Shown in pieces: positions 32,782 to 57,541 of a stretch of DNA of 63,529 nt. The DNA comes from an uncultured bacterium (GTDB taxonomy: Bacteria > Schekmanbacteria > GWA2-38-11 > J061), in the NCBI GenBank assembly GCA_964549305.1, contig CAZJVM010000005.1:10524-74052 (forward strand), given 5' to 3'. Under the pieces are notes generated by a model that saw only the letters and a program-made list of their open reading frames with translations, was not told the DNA's origin and ran no database searches. Both the position numbers and the translations under genes were made by a program. Each line of letters opens with the position of its first letter. Positions within the stretch are counted from its first letter, which is position 1.

Positions 32782-33153
32782 ATGAATGTAATGATAGTTG
32801 ATGACTCCTCTGTGATGAGGAAAATACTGACAAGGACATTAAGGCAATCTGACCTGGTAGTAGATGAAATCCTTGAAGCATCAAACGGAGAGGAGGCACT
32901 TGAAAAACTGAAACAGCAACCCGTTGAACTTGTCCTTTGCGACGTAAACATGCCAAAACTCAACGGACTTCAGTTTGTTCAAACCGTAAAGAAAGAAAAT
33001 ATATCGCCGGCCACTAAAATAGTAATGGTAACAAGCGAAGGCGGACTCGACACTGTTAACGAAGCGGTGGAAAACGGAGCGAAGGGATTCATCATAAAGC
33101 CTTTTTCCGCTGACGATTTTAAAAAGAAAATCGAACATCTATGTGCCGCCTGA
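32782..33153 (+). CDS. cheY: Chemotaxis response regulator
   Basis: Stand-alone receiver (VDDS, CDVNMP, VTS, KPF) heading a che cluster; RBS AGGAGG. Confidence 0.9.
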   Translation: MNVMIVDDSSVMRKILTRTLRQSDLVVDEILEASNGEEALEKLKQQPVELVLCDVNMPKLNGLQFVQTVKKENISPATKIVMVTSEGGLDTVNEAVENGAKGFIIKPFSADDFKKKIEHLCAA

Positions 33154-33208
33154 AAAAGAAAATCATAAACTATTAATTTTAACGGCGATTTAAAAAAGGT
33201 ATTTTCAA

Positions 33209-33694
33209 ATGGAAAATATTTTCAAAATGCTTTCTGAATCAACTAAAGAAGTTTTCCACACAATGATGTCTCTCGAGATAAACGTGCATAACGAACAACT
33301 TGCCGAATTATCAGAAAAAATACATTTAAGCTCAATAATCACACTTGACGGTACAGTTAAAGGAGCAATTGTTTTTCACTGCACCAATAAGCTTGCCCTT
33401 CAAATAACCTCATCACTTCTCGACGAAGAAAAACCCGAGTCTCTCAATGAAATGGATATTCGGGACGCAATCGCGGAAGTAACGAACATCATCGCGGGAA
33501 ATTTAAAAACCAAAGTGTCCGATCTTGGACATTCCTTTTCGATTTCCCTTCCCAAAACAATGAATTGGCAGGAGTATCTCGATGAAACGAAATACATATC
33601 AAAAGAGAGAATAATTAAGTTTAAGTCAAAGGAAGAATATTTCTTTCTCGAACTTCTATCGGAAAACAAAGAAAAAATGAAAAAAGCTTCTTAA
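33209..33694 (+). CDS. cheX: CheX family CheY-P phosphatase
   Basis: EVF..M, G...G, and DAIAEVTNIIAG (ExxN) followed by SISLP. Confidence 0.85.
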   Translation: MENIFKMLSESTKEVFHTMMSLEINVHNEQLAELSEKIHLSSIITLDGTVKGAIVFHCTNKLALQITSSLLDEEKPESLNEMDIRDAIAEVTNIIAGNLKTKVSDLGHSFSISLPKTMNWQEYLDETKYISKERIIKFKSKEEYFFLELLSENKEKMKKAS

Positions 33695-33704
33695 AGGTAC
33701 CCAT

Positions 33705-34709
33705 ATGGATAACGATTTAATTGAAAAAATTGAAGACAATATATCCGACACGTTGGAAGGGTTTAGCAACGACCTGGATGAAATATTTAAAACTTTCACG
33801 GACAAACCCTTTAAGTCAACGCATATTAAAACAAAACTCATAACCGGCAGTGAATTCCTAAGTGCCGAAGACAACAGCAAAGCGGTAATACTCAATCTTG
33901 ATTCCGATGATGAAATCAAAGGAAATATATTCGTCACATTCAGCTTTAAAGAGGTTTGCACCATATCGGGACTTGTAAACGGGCTTTCCGAATCTTCAAT
34001 AAAGGAAAAACTCGAAAGCGGCAACTATGACGATAACGACATCGATACTGTTTCGGAAATTGCAAATCAGGTTGCATCAAAATTAAATAACAGCTTCAAC
34101 CCCTCAACCAAAAAAAAGATACACTTAGTCAAAACAGAGCATATTATCAATGGTGACGGGGAAGAAGGCAAAAGCAATCCCGTTGAAAGCGACACGCAAT
34201 ATTTTTCCACAAATTTTTCCGTGACTCTTGAGGGCAAAGAGCTCGGTTTCGTATTTATCCTGATGCCTCTCGAAATATCGGCTGAAATAGCGGGAGTATC
34301 GGAAGAGGGCACGGAAAAAAGCGAATCCACAAGCCCCGGCAAGATAAAAAAAATTATTGTGTTAGCAAAGGAGCTTGATTCAGAGTCTGAAAGTTCATAC
34401 AGCGAAGCGGCAAACAACATGAAAGCGGAAATGGTATCATGCCCGCTGGAGTCGAACATCGATGAGAATAGTGAATTGAAGGAAGCTGACATTATCTTCG
34501 TAGATTTCGAAGAAGACCCGGAAAAAGGAATATCAATCTGCAAAGAATTGATAAGTGCATCGGGAAAGAGCAAAAAGATAATCTTATCCTCTAAAAACAT
34601 CACTAAAGAAATACTTATGCAGGCTCTATCAACAGGAGTTTCCGATATCATTGTCAAGCCGGCTTCAAGCGAAACCATTTTAAAAAAAGTCAAAATGAAC
34701 GCGGAGTAA
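33705..34709 (+). CDS. CheC/CheX-like phosphatase domain fused to a C-terminal atypical receiver domain
   Basis: DTVSEIANQ (ExxN). The C-terminal ADIIFVD...ILSS...A...GVSDIIVKP lacks the acidic pair after beta1. Confidence 0.65.
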   Translation: MDNDLIEKIEDNISDTLEGFSNDLDEIFKTFTDKPFKSTHIKTKLITGSEFLSAEDNSKAVILNLDSDDEIKGNIFVTFSFKEVCTISGLVNGLSESSIKEKLESGNYDDNDIDTVSEIANQVASKLNNSFNPSTKKKIHLVKTEHIINGDGEEGKSNPVESDTQYFSTNFSVTLEGKELGFVFILMPLEISAEIAGVSEEGTEKSESTSPGKIKKIIVLAKELDSESESSYSEAANNMKAEMVSCPLESNIDENSELKEADIIFVDFEEDPEKGISICKELISASGKSKKIILSSKNITKEILMQALSTGVSDIIVKPASSETILKKVKMNAE

Positions 34710-34712
34710 TTT

Positions 34713-37358
34713 ATGCCTGACGATTCAAAAGAAAATATAGAAAGAATTTTAAATCAAATTAACGCTCTTATGCTTGCATCAGATACAGATGACGCACTTT
34801 TTCTGAGCAATGAGTTTGCGGAAAAGTTAAAGGAAATGGGCGGTCTCCTTGAAAAGAGCGATAAGGATGCTCTGAGGACTTTGTCAAAGGATATTACTGC
34901 TGTTGTCAAGCAAGTTGAGCAGTCTAATCCTCCCGATACCATCCCGGAGGATTTTGTAAAGAAAACGAAAGCTAAAATTTCAGAAATAGAGTCAATTATT
35001 CAGGAAAAAGCGCTTCAAGAGGATAATAGTAAAAGCACAAACGGTGAATCAATATCTATTTCCGAAGAAGACCTTGAACTGTTCGACGATTTTTTAACTG
35101 AAAGCAGAGAGCATCTGCAAAAAATAGAAGAAGTAATCATAGAGCTTGAAAATAACACCGATGATAAAGAGCTTATTAACGGTGTTTTTCGCGCATTTCA
35201 CACAATCAAGGGAAATTCTGCGTTTCTTGATTTGAAGTCAATAAATGTCCTCTCTCACAGGAGTGAAAACCTGCTCGATGCCCTGAGAAACGATAAAATT
35301 CAATTCACTCCGGAGTTGACAGATATTATTTTGGAGTCCGTTGACCTGCTGAAAAAGATGCTCATCTCCCTGGAAGAATGCATCGGCCAAAAAAAAACTT
35401 ACAAAAACGAGGAAGACATAAATAGTATTTTAGAAAAAATAGAAAAAGCTATTAGTCCTTCCCCTGCTGAAAAAATAGCTGAAGTCAAATCCTCTGAATC
35501 AATAAAGGGAGAAAAAACCGCAGATAAGAAAGAGGAAATATCGTCGGATAAACCGTTTATCCTTTTTTCAGAAGATACGGACAAAAGCTTTCTCCCGGAT
35601 TTCGTAACGGAATGCAGAGAATATTTGGAAAATGCCGAATCCGCTCTATTGGAGCTTGAATCAGACCCTAAAAACTCAGATGCCGTAAATACGGTTTTCA
35701 GGGCATTTCACACCATAAAAGGTACTTCATCCTTTCTTGGAATAATACCTGTATCTGAACTTTGCCACAAGGTCGAATCTCTTCTGATACCGATTAGAGA
35801 CGGCCTTATATCGTTTACGGAAGGATATGCGGACCTTTCGTTAAGAGGAATAGACCTCCTTAAAGAATTAATCGCATTGGCGGAGAATCCGGAACCGGAA
35901 ATCGCTGAACCTGACGACTTCGGGCAATACCTGAAAGACCTCGATAATCTTGACAATGTATTGTCAAAAAATGACGATGATGACGCGCATATTCCTAAGA
36001 TAGGCGAAATACTTCTCGGCGAAGGTAAAGTTTCAAAAGATGACATTGAAAAAGCGTCATCCTCCCCGTCAAACGAACCTATCGGCGTAAAACTCATAAA
36101 AAACGGATTGGCATCCACCCAGGATGTTGCCAAGGCATTGCGCAAGCAAAGGAAAATAGCCAACAACAATCATCACGAATCATCGGTGCGCGTGAGAACT
36201 GACCGGCTCGACAAACTCATAGATATGGTCGGAGAGCTTGTAATCTCCCATTCAATGATCGCGCAGGACTCCTTTTCCGTAGATTCGGGCGACAACGGCT
36301 TTCAAAAGAAGGTCTCCCACTCAGGAAAAATTGTGAGAGAACTTCAGGATTTAAGCCTTGCAATAAGAATGGTCCCTATGAAGCCGACTTTCCAGAAAAT
36401 GGTCAGACTCGTGAGAGACCTTTCGAGAAAAAGTGACAAAACCATCAACTTCATTACAAATGGCGAAGAAACGGAAATTGACAGACATATGGTTGATGTC
36501 ATCAACGACCCCCTTGTACATCTTTTAAGAAATTCCGTTGACCACGGAGTGGAAAACAGTGAGGTGAGAGCGCAGTGGGGAAAAAAAGCCGAAGGCACAA
36601 TATCGCTCTCCGCCTACCACTCAGGAGGCAATGTGGTCATTGAAATTCACGACGACGGCAAAGGCCTTGACCGGGACAAAATACTCGAAAAAGCCATAAG
36701 CAAAGGATTTGTAAAACCAGGAATGAATTTGACAGACCAGGAGATATTCGATTTCATTTTTATGCCCGGTTTCTCAACTGCCGAAAAGGTCACCGAAATA
36801 TCCGGACGGGGAGTGGGTCTCGATGTGGTGAAAAAAAACATAGAATCCCTTAAAGGCAAAATTCATTTACTCTCGGAAAAGGGCAAAGGATCTACCTTTG
36901 TAATATATTTGCCTCTCACGATGGCGATTACCGACGGTATGCTGGTTAAGGTAGGCAATCAGAGATTTATAATCCCCACTATTAACATATCCATGAGTTA
37001 TCGCCCGGAAAAGAACGCAATATCAACGATTGCCGGAAAAGGCGAAATAGTGAAGTTTAAAGATAAGATTTTACCTCTTTTCAGGCTTTCTACAATTTTC
37101 GGAATTTCCAATGGCACTGAAAATGCTTCAGAGAACATATTCGTAATAATTAACGACAATCAAAATTCCTATGTGCTGGCAGTTGACGAACTTCTCGGTC
37201 AACAGCAGGTTGTGGCAAAGTCCCTTGAATGCGGATTAGTAAAGATACCTGTAGTTTCAGGCGGAGCAATACTTTCTGACGGAAAAGTAGGAATTATTCT
37301 TGACCCGACAGGAATCTATAAGATGGCCACTAACTACAAAGCTAAAGAAATAGCATAA
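34713..37358 (+). CDS. cheA: Chemotaxis histidine kinase with two Hpt domains and an MshEN-like insert
   Basis: Two FRAFHTIKG motifs, VRV..DRLD.LIDMVGELVI, RNSVDHG, DDGKG, SGRGVGLDVV and a C-terminal CheW domain. Confidence 0.95.
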   Translation: MPDDSKENIERILNQINALMLASDTDDALFLSNEFAEKLKEMGGLLEKSDKDALRTLSKDITAVVKQVEQSNPPDTIPEDFVKKTKAKISEIESIIQEKALQEDNSKSTNGESISISEEDLELFDDFLTESREHLQKIEEVIIELENNTDDKELINGVFRAFHTIKGNSAFLDLKSINVLSHRSENLLDALRNDKIQFTPELTDIILESVDLLKKMLISLEECIGQKKTYKNEEDINSILEKIEKAISPSPAEKIAEVKSSESIKGEKTADKKEEISSDKPFILFSEDTDKSFLPDFVTECREYLENAESALLELESDPKNSDAVNTVFRAFHTIKGTSSFLGIIPVSELCHKVESLLIPIRDGLISFTEGYADLSLRGIDLLKELIALAENPEPEIAEPDDFGQYLKDLDNLDNVLSKNDDDDAHIPKIGEILLGEGKVSKDDIEKASSSPSNEPIGVKLIKNGLASTQDVAKALRKQRKIANNNHHESSVRVRTDRLDKLIDMVGELVISHSMIAQDSFSVDSGDNGFQKKVSHSGKIVRELQDLSLAIRMVPMKPTFQKMVRLVRDLSRKSDKTINFITNGEETEIDRHMVDVINDPLVHLLRNSVDHGVENSEVRAQWGKKAEGTISLSAYHSGGNVVIEIHDDGKGLDRDKILEKAISKGFVKPGMNLTDQEIFDFIFMPGFSTAEKVTEISGRGVGLDVVKKNIESLKGKIHLLSEKGKGSTFVIYLPLTMAITDGMLVKVGNQRFIIPTINISMSYRPEKNAISTIAGKGEIVKFKDKILPLFRLSTIFGISNGTENASENIFVIINDNQNSYVLAVDELLGQQQVVAKSLECGLVKIPVVSGGAILSDGKVGIILDPTGIYKMATNYKAKEIA

Positions 37359-37381
37359 TTTTTTTTTGAAAGGAAAATACA

Positions 37382-37930
37382 ATGGAAAAAAATGTAAACG
37401 AACAGTCATTGAAAAATTCCGGCATCGAAAATAATAACGCAAAGGGCGGAAAGTTTCTTACATTCTTTCTCGGCAATGAAGAATACGGTCTTCCGATACT
37501 TTCCGTTCAGGAGATAATCGCCCTTCTTCCCATTACTCCCGTGCCGCGAACTCCGGATTTTTTTAAAGGTCTTACAAATCTTCGCGGAAAAATCATTCCC
37601 GTAATGGATCTGAGAATTAAATTCGGAATGGAAGCGAACGAACCTACAGAGGAAACATGCATAATCGTTGTCAGAACGGCAAACCATCTAATCGGAATTA
37701 TTGTAGATAAGGTGTCGGAGGTTAAAAACATTCACGATGAACAAATAGATGAACCTCCCGAATTCGGTAAAAATGCCATCTCGGAATACCTGTTTGGAAT
37801 AGGAAAATCAGATGATTCGGTAATTCTTCTTGTCAATATCGAAGAAGTGGTAAGCACTGCCGAGATTTCAGAAGTCAATTCCGACAGGGTTGATGATGAT
37901 TCTCTCGAAGCGGATGAAAATATTTCTTAA
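37382..37930 (+). CDS. cheW: Chemotaxis coupling protein
   Basis: FLTF.LG.EEYG, TPVP..P.F.KG..NLRGKIIPVMDLR, IVD.V.EV. Confidence 0.95.
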   Translation: MEKNVNEQSLKNSGIENNNAKGGKFLTFFLGNEEYGLPILSVQEIIALLPITPVPRTPDFFKGLTNLRGKIIPVMDLRIKFGMEANEPTEETCIIVVRTANHLIGIIVDKVSEVKNIHDEQIDEPPEFGKNAISEYLFGIGKSDDSVILLVNIEEVVSTAEISEVNSDRVDDDSLEADENIS

Positions 37931-37951
37931 CCGTATAATCAGGAGATTTCC

Positions 37952-38278
37952 GTGAAGCCGAAAGGTATAAAACTTACGGTAACGAAAAAAATAGGGGGTT
38001 TTTTCCTGTTGGCATCTCTTCTCCTCGCTCCTTTTGCAATATACAATTATGGGCTTTTTTATAACCGGCACGATATTGCATCCAATACGCAAACATGCGT
38101 TGCGGCGACAGAGGGGTTATCGAGTTTTTCCCATGAAACTCTGTCCATAATATCCGATTTTAAACTCTCCGAAGATAACGGCAAAAACGAAAACTCTTCT
38201 GACTCATCACGGACGGGCAATTCCGCCACAATATCGTTTAATGAATTCAAGTATGACAAAAATAAGAAAGCCTCCTGA
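37952..38278 (+). CDS. Truncated 'mini-MCP' (TM1 fused to the MCP C-terminal helix); possibly a pseudogene
   Basis: MCP-type N-terminus (KLTVTKKI then TM). Its segment ...ATEGLSSFSHETLSIISDFKLSE aligns with the C-terminus of the MCP at 41751. It sits in the MCP slot between cheW and cheR and has an AGGAG RBS. Confidence 0.6.
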   Translation: MKPKGIKLTVTKKIGGFFLLASLLLAPFAIYNYGLFYNRHDIASNTQTCVAATEGLSSFSHETLSIISDFKLSEDNGKNENSSDSSRTGNSATISFNEFKYDKNKKAS

Positions 38279-38295
38279 AAAAGAGTTGTGAAATA

Positions 38296-39138
38296 ATGAA
38301 AGATTTGACTTTTAACAGATTCGAATACGAAAAGCTGGTTAAAACCGTAAAGACAATGAGTGGTATTAACCTGATTAAAGACAAAGACTCTATGGTCAAA
38401 TCAAGACTCCTGAAGCGCCTGAAAATCCTTAAATTCAACTCATTCGCAGAATACATCCATTATTATGAAAGCGATAAAAGCGGTGAGGAAATGCAGAAAA
38501 TCGTAGAAATTCTTACCACAAATAAAACGGATTTTTTCAGGGAAATTCAACATTTCGATTTTCTGGAAAAGAAGTTAATGCCTCTGATGAAAAACAAACC
38601 TTATCGCATTTGGAGCGCGGGATGCTCTTCGGGAGAAGAGCCCTATTCGCTTGCCATGCATATTCAAAGCAAAATGAATATGATCGAGCGCGCCGATATA
38701 AAAATACTCGCCACTGATATCTCCTCAAAAATGCTCGAGAAAGCGAGAGAAGCAATTTATGAAAAGGAACAAACCAAGGACATCCCCGAACCATTTTTAA
38801 AAAAATACTTTTCTCAAATAGAAAACGATAAAAACGAACGATATCAGATCTCAAAAGACTTAAAGGAAATGATTTCCTTTGCAAAATTAAATCTTGTTCA
38901 GCAATGGCCAATGCGCGGCAATTTCGATTTAATTTTATGCCGCAACGTTATGATCTATTTTGACAGAGAGACAAGGGAAGATTTAATCAACCGGTTCTGG
39001 AATATGCTTGGAGACGGCGGATTTTTATTCGTAGGACATTCCGAGAATCTTACGGGAATTACTTCATCCTTCGCCTATGAAGCACCGGCAATATATCAAA
39101 AATATGAAAACAGGGAACATAAAAGGACCATTAAATGA
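38296..39138 (+). CDS. cheR: Chemotaxis protein methyltransferase
   Basis: TTNKTDFFRE..HF, RIWSAGCSSGEEPYS, ATDIS, CRNVMIYFD, GHSE. Confidence 0.96.
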   Translation: MKDLTFNRFEYEKLVKTVKTMSGINLIKDKDSMVKSRLLKRLKILKFNSFAEYIHYYESDKSGEEMQKIVEILTTNKTDFFREIQHFDFLEKKLMPLMKNKPYRIWSAGCSSGEEPYSLAMHIQSKMNMIERADIKILATDISSKMLEKAREAIYEKEQTKDIPEPFLKKYFSQIENDKNERYQISKDLKEMISFAKLNLVQQWPMRGNFDLILCRNVMIYFDRETREDLINRFWNMLGDGGFLFVGHSENLTGITSSFAYEAPAIYQKYENREHKRTIK

Positions 39139-39659
39139 TTAATACTGTCGGATTAGCGGATATGAAAATATCTTCGGCAAAAGAAGATATTATTATTACT
39201 CACGGGTTGGGAAGCTGTCTCGGAGTTACCGTTTATGACCCCCTTTCCCATGTGGGGGGGATGATTCATATAATGCTGCCCCTTTCAAGTATCAATCCGG
39301 AAAACGCAAAAACCAGACCCTATATGTTTGTAGATACGGGCATACCAAAGCTATTTATAAAGTGCTACGAACTTGGCGCCTGCAAGGAGAGAATGATAGT
39401 AACTGTCGCGGGAGGGTCAAACCCACTTGGCGCAAACGGAAGTGATTTTTTCAACATAGGCGAGCGCAACTTTGACATTCTCAAGAGACTGTTAGAGAAA
39501 AACAATATCATGCTGAGAGCTTATGATGTGGGAGGCACCCAGTCGCGGACAATGTCCATTAACATAGAAACAGGAACGGTAAATTTAAAATTAAACGGTT
39601 ATGAAAAGAAGGTTTTATATGACGGTCACGGAGAACAAAAATTAACTCAGGAACTTTAA
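39135..39659 (+). CDS. cheD: Chemoreceptor glutamine deamidase
   Basis: GLGSC, GGM.H.MLP, IGERN, DVGG..SR. Confidence 0.94.
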   Translation: MINTVGLADMKISSAKEDIIITHGLGSCLGVTVYDPLSHVGGMIHIMLPLSSINPENAKTRPYMFVDTGIPKLFIKCYELGACKERMIVTVAGGSNPLGANGSDFFNIGERNFDILKRLLEKNNIMLRAYDVGGTQSRTMSINIETGTVNLKLNGYEKKVLYDGHGEQKLTQEL

Positions 39660-39693
39660 ACGGATTAAGAATAATTTTTAAGGAGAAATCGCT

Positions 39694-40761
39694 ATGATTC
39701 GAGTCCTTATAGTTGATGACTCTTCTCTGGTAAGAAAAGTACTATCAGATGAATTGTCAAAATATGATGATATCGATGTTGTGGGGACCGCAATCGACCC
39801 TTACGCGGCAAGGGAAAAAATCGTAAAGCTCAATCCCGATGTCATCACGTTAGATATCGAAATGCCCCGAATGAATGGCCTTGACTTTCTCGAAACCTTG
39901 ATGAAGCATTATCCCATTCCCGTTGTCATAGTAAGTTCTCTTGCTCCTGAAAACAGCACTGCGGCAGTAAAAGCTCTTGACCTTGGAGCTGTTGATGTCA
40001 TATGCAAGCCAGGTTCTATGTATTCCGCTCCCGATGTATCAACGCGTCTCATCCACTCGATAAGAGCGGCAGCCATTGCGAAATTAAACGGCAAAATTGT
40101 AAAAAGAAATATTGATTCCGTAATTACCACTCCAGACATCGAAAGTTCAAAAACCTTCACATCATTGCCGAACAAGATCGTAGCAATAGGGGCATCTACG
40201 GGAGGGCCTAAAGCTCTGCAGGAACTTTTCACAACAATGCCCGCGGAATCTCCCGCCTGCCTGATTGCGCTTCATATGCCCGCCGGATTTACAAAAGAAT
40301 TCGCTAAACGGCTGGACGAAATCTGTGCCATGAAAATATGCGAGGCAGAAGACGATATGGCGGTAACTGCGGGAAAAGCCCTGATTGCTCCCGGAGACAT
40401 TCATATGAGCATAGCGAAAAATAACGGACATTACAGTGTCAAGTTAAAAACCGGGCCGCTAATTAACTATCAAAGGCCCAGTATAGATGTCCTCTTTTAC
40501 TCCGTCGCCTCTCAGGCAAAGGAAAATGCCATAGGTGTGTTATTGACGGGGATGGGTTCAGACGGAGCGGAGGGGATTCTTGCCATGCACAAAAGAGGAG
40601 CTTATACCATTGCTCAGGATGAGGAATCATCGGCAATCTTCGGGATGCCTCAGGAGGCAATAAAATTGGGCGGGATAAATGAAATATCGCATATTGAGGA
40701 AATCGGCAAGGCAATTGTGAAAGCATCGTCAAAGCAACTTATCGCGGCATCGGGAACCTGA
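39694..40761 (+). CDS. cheB: Chemotaxis response regulator methylesterase
   Basis: Receiver domain plus GASTGGP, HMP and LTGMGSDG. Confidence 0.96.
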   Translation: MIRVLIVDDSSLVRKVLSDELSKYDDIDVVGTAIDPYAAREKIVKLNPDVITLDIEMPRMNGLDFLETLMKHYPIPVVIVSSLAPENSTAAVKALDLGAVDVICKPGSMYSAPDVSTRLIHSIRAAAIAKLNGKIVKRNIDSVITTPDIESSKTFTSLPNKIVAIGASTGGPKALQELFTTMPAESPACLIALHMPAGFTKEFAKRLDEICAMKICEAEDDMAVTAGKALIAPGDIHMSIAKNNGHYSVKLKTGPLINYQRPSIDVLFYSVASQAKENAIGVLLTGMGSDGAEGILAMHKRGAYTIAQDEESSAIFGMPQEAIKLGGINEISHIEEIGKAIVKASSKQLIAASGT

Positions 40762-40781
40762 AAGGATGAACTATAAATTTC

Positions 40782-40808
40782 TAAAAGATAATGCTTTTTT
40801 GACGATGA
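40782..40808 (+). promoter_or_regulatory. Candidate sigma28 promoter upstream of the HDOD-MCP pair
   Basis: TAAA (40782-85)-N15-GACGATGA (40801-08): canonical spacing, 6/8 match at -10. Confidence 0.45.
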
Positions 40809-40850
40809 TTATTTGTTGTCTATTTTAATTTTTAAACATTTACGGAAAAT

Positions 40851-41696
40851 ATGAACTGCGCTACCGACATAATGGAAAGGGTTGAAACACTTCCAACTCT
40901 GCCCACGGTTTTTATGAAAACAGTATCTCTTCTCGATAAAAAAGAGATAGAAATCAGCGAAATAGTCAATGTCATAAAATACGACCCTGCAATCACGGCA
41001 AACACTCTCAAGATTTGCAACTCCGCATATTACGGCCTTATGAGAAAGGTTTCATCCCTAAACGAAGCGGCAGTTTATGTGGGGACAAACGAACTTTTGA
41101 AGATAGCCCTTATGGGAAGTTCCTCGGATTTTCTCAAGGAAGAAATCGAGGGTTACAGTCTCGATGAAGGAGAACTTTTTCGCCATTCCACAGGTTGTGC
41201 CACTGCGTCGCAGCTTCTTTTAAAAAAGATGAACAGGCAAAACCAGCCGATACTCTTTACCGCCTCTCTTCTTCACGATATCGGGAAACTTGTTTTAAGC
41301 CGTTTCGTTAAAAATGACTATATAAAAATCTATAAGCTCGTTATACAAAACAAGTACACGTTCATTGAAGCGGAAAAAGAAATATTGAATATAACGCACG
41401 CCGACATAGGAGCTCTTCTTTGCGAAAAATGGAATTTCCCGCAGGAATTGTCAGAACTAATCAGATATCACCACGAGCCTGAAAAGAGCCCTGAGGAAAT
41501 CCGCGAATCCATTGAACTTATTCATCTCAGCGATTTAATGTGCCTGATAGCGGGAATAGGAATAGGCGCCGACGGAATGGCATACAAACCTGAAATAAAA
41601 AACGAAAAACTTCTTGAAATAGTCAAAAAGGATTTAAACTCCCTCATCTTTGATTTGATTACCGAAATGGAAAAAATAGGGAATGCATTTATGTAA
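40851..41696 (+). CDS. HDOD domain protein
   Basis: LPTLP, DPA.TA..LK..NSAYYG, HS, LLHDIGK, H..IG..L...WNFP, YHH. Confidence 0.92.
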   Translation: MNCATDIMERVETLPTLPTVFMKTVSLLDKKEIEISEIVNVIKYDPAITANTLKICNSAYYGLMRKVSSLNEAAVYVGTNELLKIALMGSSSDFLKEEIEGYSLDEGELFRHSTGCATASQLLLKKMNRQNQPILFTASLLHDIGKLVLSRFVKNDYIKIYKLVIQNKYTFIEAEKEILNITHADIGALLCEKWNFPQELSELIRYHHEPEKSPEEIRESIELIHLSDLMCLIAGIGIGADGMAYKPEIKNEKLLEIVKKDLNSLIFDLITEMEKIGNAFM

Positions 41697-41750
41697 TAAA
41701 GGCTATCCGCCCATAATGCTTTTATCAGAACTATGTATGGAGTTAAAACA

Positions 41751-43769
41751 ATGGCAAAAAAGTTAAAATTAAATCTTTCCTTGAAAACCGCGCTTACTGT
41801 CGCGCTGACATTATTAATCATATTAGGGATAAATACTTATTTTCAAATCAATGGAAAAAAGCATTTCTATGAAGTGGAATTGATAAAGCAATCGGAAGAT
41901 TTAGCCTCTCTTCTCAATGCCACATTGCGAAACAGAATGATAAACAGCGACCCTGAAAGCATTCAGGTTGCCCTGGACGATACACAAAAGATTAAATCAG
42001 TGAAAAAAATCTCTATATTGACTCCTTCAGGCAAGGTTTTTCTATCATCGGACAAGAGCGACTTCCGCCCGGGCAGAACTGAAAATGAAACAATAAAAAA
42101 CATTGCAAAAAACAAAAAAAAATTTTTCTATTTAAACGGTTCAGCAAAAGGTGGAGAATTTGTGGAAGGATTGATTCCAATAAAAGCGGACAACCGATGC
42201 ATAGGATGCCACGATAATGTGAAGGAGGGAGGCATTATAGGGTATCTTTCAACGCAAATATGGGCAGTTGATGAGCTAAAAAACTTAAGAGCGAAACTTT
42301 CACGAGACATAACCACAAATATTTCACTTATAGCGATTCTTATCATAGCGGCTTCCTTCCTAATCAACAAAATGATCAAACCAATAAGTGAAATCGCCAC
42401 AAAGGCAAAAAATATATCAAATGGCGATACGGAACAGATAATCGAATATAAATCGAATGATGAAATAGGAATACTCGCGGATTCTTTCAGAGAGCTAATA
42501 AATTATATTAAAAACGCAAGCGAATCGGCATATGATTTGTCAAATGGCAAACTTAAGATATCCGCATCGGAAAAAAGCGACAAGGATATTATGAATCGCT
42601 CTTTTCTCAAACTTCAAAACACGGTAAAATACTTTATAGAAGACATGGAAGGGCTGATTAAATCAGCGAAGGAGGGAAACCTTCAAAAAAGAGCGGATGT
42701 GACGAAATACAGTGGAGGTTTCAGAAAAATCGCCGTTTCTACCAACGACTTGCTGGATTCCATTGTCAATCCCATAGATGAGTCGGCAAATGTCTTGGAA
42801 ACCATCTCTGATTTCGATTTATCTGTAAGAATGAAACAAAACTACGCAGGCGAATTTGACAGAATAAAACAATCTCTGAATAAAGCTGTTTCAAGTCTCG
42901 ATGACATTCTTCTGCAGGCAAAACATTCTGCAGAGCAGGTATCCGAAGCATCCAAACAAATCTGCGAAAGCAGTCAGGTGCTTGCCGGAGGCGCATACGA
43001 ACAGACACAGTCTCAGGAAAACATCTCAAAAAACCTTGCGGAAATGACCGAAGTTACAAAGAAAAACACCGATTCCGCCGAATCCGCTATGAAGATATCC
43101 GATACAGCGAAAAATATTACCGCTGAAAGCGTATCAAAGATGAATATTCTTTCAGACGCTATAATAAAAACCAAGGACTCATCAGATGCCACAGGCAAAA
43201 TCGTAAAAACAATCGATGAAATTGCTTTTCAGACAAATCTTCTCGCTCTAAACGCATCGGTAGAAGCGGCGAGAGCAGGAGAGGCGGGAAAGGGATTCGC
43301 CGTAGTTGCCGAAGAGGTTAGAAACCTCGCCATAAAGAGCGCCGGAGCGGCAAGAAGTTCCGCGGAACTTATAAAGGAATCCATTGAAAACGCAGAAAAC
43401 GCAGTGAAAATAAATTCGAGCGTCATAGAAAAGATGAGCGAAACTCTCGAGCATATAAACAAGGTAAATATGGGTGTAATGGAAATTTCGGAAGCTCTCA
43501 TTCAGCAAAACGAGAGAGCATCTAATATCTATGCGGAAGTTGACCAGTTGAATATGATAACACAGCAAAATGCCGCAAGTTCACAACAACTTGCAAGCGC
43601 CTCACAGGAACTTGCGGGACAATCTGTCGAAGCAAGGGATATGATTAGTCAGTTTAAGCTTACGGAACAAGAACCTGCATCAACAACATCGATTATTGAA
43701 GAAAAAAATCCCGAAAACATTATACCTTTTAATGCAAGTGACGATGACAGCATTTTACAGTCATTTTGA
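41751..43769 (+). CDS. Methyl-accepting chemotaxis protein with a periplasmic c-type haem (CIGCH) sensor and multiple HAMPs
   Basis: TM-periplasmic-TM, then DEIG.LA HAMP, further HAMP-like segments and [34 protein letters not shown]. The ORF-track start is 41733; 41751 follows GGAG. Confidence 0.93.
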
Positions 43770-51313: not shown

Positions 51314-52432
51314 CTATTTTTCAGGCGCTTTTTTCTCTTTCACTTTTTCCTCTTTTACCACGCCGTAAACATTTGCTATAAATTCAGGATAATCCTTACT
51401 GTCGGTAATAATTTTTACTGTACTTTTGAAACTTCCCTCCTCAAGCTGTGATGAAGGTGTTAAGATTATCTTTGCCGATTCTCCCGACTTTACCGTATAT
51501 GGTGTTTTGAATTCAGTATTTACCACTTTATTATCATACTCTACCTTTACAACTTTCAGATTTTTTTCTCCGAAGTTTTTTACACTTATCTTTCTTCTCG
51601 CCTTTTTCCCCTTCTTCACCACATTGAATCCCACATTCTTCGGGATAAACTGTATTTCTCCAGTAAGCTGACCTGAAAAAGGTATTAGCACCTTTTCCTT
51701 TTGTCCTTTTACAGTAACTTCCACATTTCCGAATACCCCTCTGGGAGATGTAATCAATTCCTTATCGGGAGTGTATTTGAAGGTGATATCCGATGACTCA
51801 TTCGGATTTAAAAGTTTTTTGTAATCTCCGATTGCCAAATGCTTGTCCGAAGAAAAAACCTTTTCCAAAGTAACGGGTACGGCCATCATATTTTTAATCT
51901 TAATGGTCTTTTCGGCAACTTTCTGTCCGATTATTTTTCCGAAGGAAATGTATTGGGGCTTTGCCTCGAGAAGGGCTTTTACCCGGGCTTTTATATTTAA
52001 TGTCGTATTTTTTTTCTGTGGGTCATTTGATGAAAATCTTATCTGCCTGTGGACTTCACCATTAAACCTCTTTGAAGAAAAAATTATTCTTAAATCCCCT
52101 TTTTGCCCCGGTTTGATTACGCTTGAAGATGCCATTGCCGCTGTACAGCCACAGGATGTCTTTATATCTTTTATGTTAAGGTCCGCATTGCCTTCGTTTT
52201 TAATTTTAAATACATGCTCCGCTTTGCTTTGCTGAAGCATTTCGCCGAAATCAAAGGATTCCTCTTCCATTACGAGCTTAGGCAGTTTTTCGCTCTTTTG
52301 TGTTGCAGACACCTCGGCTTTCTTTACCTCCGCTTTTTCCCCGGCGACAGCGCCCATGGGCAAAACAAGAAGTGGAGCAACAACAAATAAAAGGAAAAAC
52401 AACGCCGCATTCGAATATATTTTTTTCGTCAT
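51314..52432 (-). CDS. Secreted DUF1573 / multi-Ig-fold protein
   Basis: Signal peptide, FDFG, F...N.G...L.I....SCGCT....I.PG, SND, then two further Ig-like repeats. Confidence 0.8.
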   Translation of the reverse strand: MTKKIYSNAALFFLLFVVAPLLVLPMGAVAGEKAEVKKAEVSATQKSEKLPKLVMEEESFDFGEMLQQSKAEHVFKIKNEGNADLNIKDIKTSCGCTAAMASSSVIKPGQKGDLRIIFSSKRFNGEVHRQIRFSSNDPQKKNTTLNIKARVKALLEAKPQYISFGKIIGQKVAEKTIKIKNMMAVPVTLEKVFSSDKHLAIGDYKKLLNPNESSDITFKYTPDKELITSPRGVFGNVEVTVKGQKEKVLIPFSGQLTGEIQFIPKNVGFNVVKKGKKARRKISVKNFGEKNLKVVKVEYDNKVVNTEFKTPYTVKSGESAKIILTPSSQLEEGSFKSTVKIITDSKDYPEFIANVYGVVKEEKVKEKKAPEK

Positions 52433-56488: not shown

Positions 56489-57541
56489 ATGAAAATGACG
56501 GACAAACCATTATTTAAAAGTTTCGCATTAATTTCAATTTTTCTTTTCCAGTCACTCATAATTTTCGCAGGTGAATACCACACCGGAAGCACTCTCGTGT
56601 GCAAGGACTGCCACTCCATACACTCATCGGCAGGGCACGGCTACGGCGGCACATCGGGCGGTTATTCGAACACTGCATCGGGATTCCTGCTAAAGAGCAA
56701 CGGCGATGTGAACAAGTTATGCCTCTCCTGCCACGACGGCGATTCTTCCGCGCCCGATGTCCTGGAGTCAAATTCAGATGTGGAGGAAAGGTCTGCGGGA
56801 GCGTTGAATGATTCTTCGTCTTCAGGCGCATACTCACCGCAAAACGGCCACACGCTCGGCGCAACTTCTCGCGCGCCCGGCGGACGATGGATTCCCGCAG
56901 GTAGTTCGGGATTGAAATGCACCGACTGTCACCATCAGCACGGATATGTGCCTGATGGCTCAAAGGATATAAGCGGAAACACCGTAAACGGCACATACCG
57001 CAACCTTAAAGTAAATCCCGGCAATGCCTCACAGTCTATTGCCGTAAGCTATGCCGCAGGTTCAAATGATTCCACACGCGATGTATTCATTCAGGACGCT
57101 CAAAGCTACTCCATAGACAACACACAGTTAAACGAACCATCAAGCGACGATTCGGGAATTGCCACCTGGTGCAACGGCTGTCACGCAGAGCTTCACGGAC
57201 AGATAGGAGGTTCCGAAATCGGCGGCAGTAAAAGTCAGGGCGGATTCATAAGACATCCTTCGGCAGGCACTGACATAGGGGGAATCGGAGGCGAACATTC
57301 AAGCCTTGAAAGATTCAATTCCCTCACTTACACCACGCGCGTAATGGACCCTGACGGGATATGGTCTCCGGGCTCATACGACGGAAATGAAACGCCCACT
57401 TGTCTTACCTGCCACCGCGCGCACGGAAGCGAAAAACCCTTCGGGCTCATTTATATGACGGGAAACTCCTCTGCCACAGAAAGCGGAGACGGCGTCGAGG
57501 TTTATGACCTATGCAGGCAGTGCCACGTGCAGGCCCTATAA
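56489..57541 (+). CDS. Secreted hexahaem c-type cytochrome, OmcS-like architecture
   Basis: Sec signal peptide; six CxxCH motifs (CKDCH, CLSCH, CTDCH, CNGCH, CLTCH, CRQCH), spare His residues and Gly/Ser-rich loops. Confidence 0.88.
   Translation: MKMTDKPLFKSFALISIFLFQSLIIFAGEYHTGSTLVCKDCHSIHSSAGHGYGGTSGGYSNTASGFLLKSNGDVNKLCLSCHDGDSSAPDVLESNSDVEERSAGALNDSSSSGAYSPQNGHTLGATSRAPGGRWIPAGSSGLKCTDCHHQHGYVPDGSKDISGNTVNGTYRNLKVNPGNASQSIAVSYAAGSNDSTRDVFIQDAQSYSIDNTQLNEPSSDDSGIATWCNGCHAELHGQIGGSEIGGSKSQGGFIRHPSAGTDIGGIGGEHSSLERFNSLTYTTRVMDPDGIWSPGSYDGNETPTCLTCHRAHGSEKPFGLIYMTGNSSATESGDGVEVYDLCRQCHVQAL

Follow-up and report, generated by a model that had tools for sequence, protein, structure and literature searches.

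OmcS (GSU2504, PDB 6EF8/6NEF) is, according to excerpts of PMC12977616, the only one of four Geobacter sulfurreducens paralogues known to form a wire. In that account, no function is known for OmcT, OmcJ or GSU2501, and homology is stated to be unable to pick out true wires in other genera. Each OmcS subunit provides eleven of its twelve axial haem ligands itself, and a neighbour supplies the remaining one, a ligand of the fifth haem (Filman et al., PMC6584659, in part). OmcE nanowires (PDB 7TFS, 9YUQ) carry four haems per subunit and share the OmcS-type linkage, in that a histidine from the neighbouring subunit joins the subunits (excerpt of PMC9473688). The omcS companion (osc) cluster GSU2505-GSU2493 has been published (Shen et al. 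2025, as relayed in excerpts of PMC13194489, PMC12977616 and PMC13712944), and its member GSU2495 is described in excerpted text as a protein of ~70 kDa with 26 haems. OmcJ (GSU0701) is an OmcS-family hexahaem encoded apart from the omcS operon (PMC12977616, in part). Outside Geobacter, OmcS homologues have been reported in diverse bacteria (PMC10954620, in part).

The window analysed here, meaning the whole stretch of 63,529 nucleotides, belongs to a genome (G000) of 2.94 Mb and 41.4% GC that is 100% complete and 0.44% contaminated. The matches listed include four genomes that share at least the order with G000, followed by genomes of the same domain only, and the names listed for relatives include no cultured organism. 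A genome of the same genus (G001) encodes a protein labelled Ca. Schekmanbacteria. This label and the small number of close relatives support a host outside the Desulfuromonadia that is un-Geobacter-like, as the initial annotation had supposed. In the portion cited, one paper lists a Schekmanbacteria genome among putative iron reducers, with the gene unnamed.

A compact hexahaem cytochrome of the OmcS family

The open reading frame at positions 56489..57541 (+ strand) encodes a compact OmcS-family hexahaem c-type cytochrome of 350 residues (P0001). Its sole hydrophobic stretch is N-terminal (maximum Kyte-Doolittle 15-mer value of 2.49 at residue 12, at most 0.32 past residue 30), and an Ala-Gly pair at 27/28 is near-invariant among relatives. 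A Sec signal peptide is accordingly predicted for residues 1-27 (56489..56569, +), with a putative cleavage site at the Ala-Gly boundary; the mature chain would comprise 323 residues, compared with 407 in OmcS. Six CxxCH motifs follow at residues 38, 78, 144, 228, 305 and 342 and hold all 12 cysteines, while none of 100,000 shuffles of the protein contained more than two. All lie on the + strand: haem 1 (residues 38-42, 56600..56614), haem 2 (78-82, 56720..56734), haem 3 as CxxCHxxH (144-151, 56918..56941), haem 4 (228-232, with His236, 57170..57196), haem 5 as CxxCHxxH (305-312, 57401..57424) and haem 6 (342-346, 57512..57526), four residues before the C-terminus. The signal peptide and six motifs described in the initial annotation are therefore present, and the landmarks GH, APGG, YRNL and RHP were all found in the order given there. 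Curated NCBIfam/Pfam models matched the protein as doubled-CXXCH and c7 domains only, and no family for OmcS was among them.

The distances between haem motifs are 40/66/84/77/37 in the window protein and 38/93/99/89/72 in OmcS (the latter counted by hand). The trimming of loops proposed from the length of 350 residues is thus real, and it is largest between haems 5 and 6, where 37 residues stand against 72 in OmcS.

A single-sequence phmmer search of the window protein against the PDB did not find OmcS at E values up to 10. Profiles did: OmcS was the top match of a profile of 28 relatives (E 8.3e-18) and of a profile of 140 sequences (6ef8_A, E 1.3e-24, covering OmcS 1-406), with OmcE-type chains as runners-up to the latter (E 1.3e-8 and 3.7e-7). 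The compact family scored 99.5% against a canonical-type proxy in hhalign. The structure predicted from the 140-row alignment (pLDDT 92.8), an apo model without haem geometry, supersedes an earlier one from 28 sequences (pLDDT 68.8). It matches OmcS (VIA) with Z 14.2 and an rmsd of 3.9 over 260 aligned residues spanning OmcS 1-407; the next match reaches Z 5.8, and OmcE only 4.4. Foldseek likewise aligned the model with OmcS (E 3.2e-7, TMq 0.45). Profiles and predicted fold thus bear out homology to OmcS beyond CxxCH and along the whole chain, in a distant and shortened protein of 18-23% identity. It is an OmcS-family member of a compact clade and no orthologue of OmcS (GSU2504); in the tree, a branch of ~2.5 changes per site separates this clade from canonical OmcS-type proteins. 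None of the contrary outcomes named in the initial annotation was encountered, the alignment to OmcS being significant and the host lying outside the Desulfuromonadia.

Wang et al. reportedly assigned the inter-subunit donor of OmcS to His16 in 2019. The spacing H2-C9-C12-H13-H16, noted at the outset as a shared feature, recurs as H31-C38-C41-H42-H45 and matches the OmcS chain. Conservation was assessed in the 140 rows, which comprise 138 database proteins and two from this genome; the database rows were pre-filtered for six CxxCH, so that invariance of these motifs is built in and the other histidines are free to vary. Six histidines that probably act as distal ligands are kept, including the one at the His16 position: His31 (56579..56581, +; OmcS His2 equivalent) in 139 rows, His45 (56621..56623, +; aligned with OmcS position 16) in 138, His121 of the GH motif (56849..56851, +; OmcS His110 equivalent) in 140, His151 next to haem 3 in 140, His256 of the RHP motif (57254..57256, +; OmcS His257 equivalent) in 139 and His312 next to haem 5 in 140. 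The repeat pattern suggests a haem-by-haem assignment in which the histidine three residues past each odd haem would bind the preceding odd haem. Under this pattern no haem within the chain would remain for His45, and no histidine within it for haem 5, whose OmcS counterpart is ligated by the neighbour; His45 is thus a candidate inter-subunit hook. A histidine after haem 6 is absent in 133 of 140 rows. Further histidines are His236 (133/140), His270 (60/140) and His50 (56636..56638, +; 116/140), the last being an extra residue of the compact clade that aligns with a non-histidine in OmcS; these three could alter the ligation pattern. A homodimer prediction with four free haems scored 0.00 in two runs, a result that speaks neither for nor against a linkage between subunits. 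Two of the 140 relatives, P0076 and P0141, are without the hook histidine after haem 1.

An orphan gene and the osc-like cluster elsewhere in the genome

The window gene lies outside the osc-like cluster, between a divergent upstream gene for an oligopeptide-binding protein (PF00496) among opp genes and a downstream aldo/keto reductase gene (PF00248). No terminator-like site was found near it, and no plasmid match was obtained. Elsewhere in the window, a chemotaxis-like gene cluster was recognised by inspecting translations (32782-43766). A secreted protein with three DUF1573/Ig-like domains is encoded at 51314-52432 (-), syntenic with purE and the opp genes in G002, a genome of the same family.

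Both the osc-like cluster and the maturation genes are present in the genome on other contigs. No omcT, porin or maturation gene adjoins the window gene; the reported lack of the latter two applies to the locus but not to the genome. ResB and CcsB (system II maturation) are encoded on contig C10, both above their cut-offs. The cluster on contig C14 (L001:360-13278) contains an OmcS-like gene and genes for an octahaem cytochrome, a propeller, a 710-residue putative barrel, two lipoproteins (GNA1162/CsgG), a PPIase and 25- and 16-haem cytochromes. The barrel has no Pfam match and is assigned tentatively from its nearest matches, which are outer-membrane clusters. An NHL gene precedes the paralogue on C155; the paralogue on C127 follows a kinase-like gene and a pair of regulators, of which one is sigma-54-dependent. 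The ends of C127 and C155 share 55 bases, as do the starts of C155 and C14, and these bases read like the tail of a seven-haem variant in G001. The three contigs probably represent one locus split at repeats, and G000 probably possesses two seven-haem copies that are missing from the assembly because of a collapsed repeat at the C14/C155 contig ends. The seven-haem OmcS variants of G001 (L098:406-1536, L100:1643-2674) have one more CxxCH motif, inserted between those of haems 2 and 3; similar reading frames occur in L016, L018, L056, L069, L079 and L080.

Taken together, C14, C155 and C127 share with the osc cluster an NHL gene, several OmcS-like genes, the propeller, the putative barrel, two lipoproteins, the PPIase and the 25- and 16-haem cytochromes, the 25-haem protein being comparable to GSU2495. 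The arrangement matches that described in excerpts of PMC13194489 and PMC12977616, the two being likened by description only. What sets the G000 cluster apart is the octahaem partner, together with a probable seven-haem variant of OmcS, and the window gene is not adjacent to it.

The genome encodes 31 open reading frames with at least four CxxCH motifs. Rieske/cytochrome b sets occur three times, each with multihaem partners (L106 on C77, L107 on C55, L104 on C88). Further respiratory candidates are a cbb3 oxidase, a NapA-like enzyme, a Qrc/ACIII-like set and an 11-haem cytochrome b fusion; most of the respiratory calls named here fall under equivalog cut-offs. On C77 there is also an octahaem cytochrome that scores weakly as hydrazine dehydrogenase/HAO-like, alongside a NapA-like enzyme, and on C88 an 11-haem cytochrome is fused to a response-regulator domain. 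The cytochrome-rich contig C42 (L102) combines 9- and 13-haem cytochromes with the Qrc/ACIII-like operon and with the 11-haem cytochrome b fusion, which resembles CbcL. No DsrA was found in G000 above the cut-off, and the NiFe-hydrogenase family gave a weak N-terminal match only, so that a sulfate-reducing or hydrogenase-fed lifestyle is unsupported.

Four paralogues on other contigs of G000 share 44-54% identity with the window protein. In a tree of 34 chosen rows the window gene is sister to five G000/G001 paralogues (support 100/97), a placement that also has a support of 97 with 134 rows. It stands apart from four canonical-type proteins of G002 and G004 (support 100/100), with G. sulfurreducens OmcS outside the tree. 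Its branch measures 0.48, compared with root-to-tip distances of ~0.24-0.29 in the sister group. The GC content of the gene is 52.4%, against the genome value given above, and its GC3 of 0.546 exceeds that of 99% of 1885 genes, the paralogues having 0.35-0.48. The C127 paralogue, the C14 orphan and the C155 NHL gene are each preceded by a sigma-54-like motif (background 68 of 2075 genes); none was found within 350 bp upstream of the window gene. The cluster-linked paralogues on C127, C155 and C14 are the likely main subunits. As a fast-evolving sister without such a motif, the window gene resembles OmcJ in character more than a main subunit. The likeness to OmcJ is positional only and drawn by description, and the window gene differs in having arisen from paralogues of its own genus.

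No orthologue of the window gene was found among seven matches in G001, where both flanking genes lie at contig ends, so that the gap between them may conceal an orthologue. In G002 an MFS gene occupies the corresponding place. Run X1, which yielded short contigs only, contains from a related strain the start of the window gene and its junction to the downstream gene. A chimeric assembly is unlikely, as the gene groups with G000 paralogues and the X1 contig bridges the gene end and the next gene.

Distribution of the compact clade and its partner module

A total of 258 representatives score E values up to 1e-30. The genomic context was compared in 76 related loci drawn from the best 80 of at least 302 confirmed stretches. 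These loci come from Eisenbacteria, Planctomycetota, Armatimonadota, Acidobacteriota, Ignavibacteria, Gemmatimonadota, Zixibacteria, Krumholzibacteriota and others. Their neighbours include NHL genes in 66 loci, large multihaem cytochromes in 57, barrel-like proteins in 52 (a count from an iterated, unconverged profile), lipoproteins in 50, propellers in 16 and PPIases in 12. Within the same best-80 set, at least three of these classes are found in 59 of 76 loci and none in five; orphans such as the window gene are a minority within the clade. Canonical OmcS-type genes (E 4.9e-113 to OmcS) occupy a like cluster in G002 (L096:13490-20000, L097:1-15000), and the same sort of cluster in G004 (L126, L127) also contains canonical genes. 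The two clades therefore fill the same genomic slot and appear, from this comparison of gene content, to replace each other within one order.

A partner multihaem module, in G000 the C14 octahaem (L001:1398-2864), is present in 51 of the 76 loci (best 80 of at least 302 stretches). Among its standalone copies in these loci, 45 of 46 have CxxCHxxH at the first haem. The module is fused behind a six-haem OmcS-like domain in five locus reading frames (four distinct; L018/L031, L041, L045 and L067, from the same best 80) and in three database proteins (P0154, P0166, P0172). In the fusions the first partner haem follows haem 6 by 34-35 residues, and the hook histidine is kept in all of them. These partner and fusion counts include kin and are hence non-independent. 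As a control, seven of 75 multihaems with at least 14 haems in the related loci (best 80 of at least 302) start with CxxCHxxH. The 25-haem cytochrome of G000 also begins in this way, so that such a start alone is not diagnostic. The fusions suggest that the partner places its hook where the next subunit would stand, at a cap or base of the wire. The hook-bearing partner lends indirect support to a linkage of subunits head to tail by histidine, and it might be the end-cap. On contig C57 of G000 (L005:1544-4817), the gene for a 14-haem cytochrome lies behind an NHL gene, and the C-terminal half of this cytochrome is similar to the C14 octahaem.

Literature matches listed for OmcS paired with four other phylum names include, in the text they display, no paper on the compact clade; Shen et al. 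2025 may cover it. The novelty claimed in the initial annotation is diminished by the published OmcS homologues beyond Geobacter, the published osc cluster and the statement that OmcS is the one known wire-former among the four G. sulfurreducens paralogues.

Possible roles and significance

The reading favoured here, as slightly more likely than not, is that the window protein is secreted, has histidine as ligand on all its haems and is an accessory or alternative subunit of an OmcS-type extracellular filament, served by the C14 cluster and working like OmcS. The protein would be exported by Sec, receive its haems from the ResB/CcsB pair on C10 and be folded and exported by the osc-like cluster acting in trans. 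His45 of one subunit would ligate haem 5 of the next, yielding a linear haem chain, and the filament may consist of the window protein alone or of a mixture with its paralogues. The 25- and 16-haem cytochromes might relay respiratory electrons from quinol-oxidising complexes, and the chain would deliver them to solids or partner cells. In favour of an accessory wire subunit are the first rank of OmcS in profiles and fold, the kept distal histidines, the partner module, the C14 cluster, ResB/CcsB and the 59 of 76 loci (best 80 of at least 302) with several neighbour classes. The gene's off-cluster position, missing sigma-54-like motif, high GC3 and long branch count against this reading, as do the single wire-former among four Geobacter paralogues, His50/236/270, the identity of 18-23% and the short haem 5-6 segment.

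That segment, half as long as in OmcS, would also suit a hook used in an assembly that is short and finite, formed for instance with the octahaem partner or at the outer-membrane barrel, the protein being an adaptor or surface cytochrome and no micrometre wire. The natural fusions of an OmcS-like domain with the partner module point the same way, and OmcT, OmcJ and GSU2501 are not known as wire-formers (PMC12977616, in part). We regard this as a distinctly weaker prospect, given a plain six-haem subunit with hook and unfilled haem 5, as in the cluster-linked paralogues, and its grouping with the main paralogues away from divergent cluster members.

The atypical GC3, long branch, housekeeping neighbours and lack of a sigma-54-like motif could also mark a duplicate that was displaced, came under relaxed selection and is seldom if ever expressed, in line with the missing orthologue among the seven G001 matches and the MFS gene at its place in G002. 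This is improbable: the frame is intact, 12 cysteines and all conserved histidines persist after ~45% divergence from the paralogues, the G001 gap could hold an orthologue, and the related strain in X1 has the gene start and downstream junction. Most doubtful of all is a monomeric periplasmic electron carrier whose haem 5 is filled from within the chain by a histidine specific to the clade. His50, present in 116 of 140 rows and without an OmcS counterpart, would be available for this, but His45 (138/140) would be left without a role and the co-occurring barrel, lipoproteins and hook-bearing partner would go unexplained.

More speculatively, the compact clade may be a second OmcS-type wire family, about one-fifth shorter, across many uncultured phyla. 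Its wires would contain mixed, interchangeable subunits, with the orphan separately regulated, and a hook-bearing partner (the C14 octahaem or an OmcS-partner fusion) would end the wire by filling the last haem 5; we hold this broader proposal to be unlikely as a whole. Taken alone, the window gene is one more copy of an already recognised family, and the gain from it is modest. A subunit of 323 residues, if it polymerises, would show which OmcS loops assembly can spare. Polymerisation of the compact clade would extend cytochrome-wire transfer to Eisenbacteria, Zixibacteria, Krumholzibacteriota, Armatimonadota, Planctomycetota, Schekmanbacteria and others, phyla in which a single-sequence search with OmcS would miss these proteins. 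How a wire ends or is anchored has been raised for OmcE in the discussion of PMC13712944, in the part cited. The hook-bearing partner would offer a direct way into this question and, if the proposal is true, would be the cap or base of an OmcS wire.
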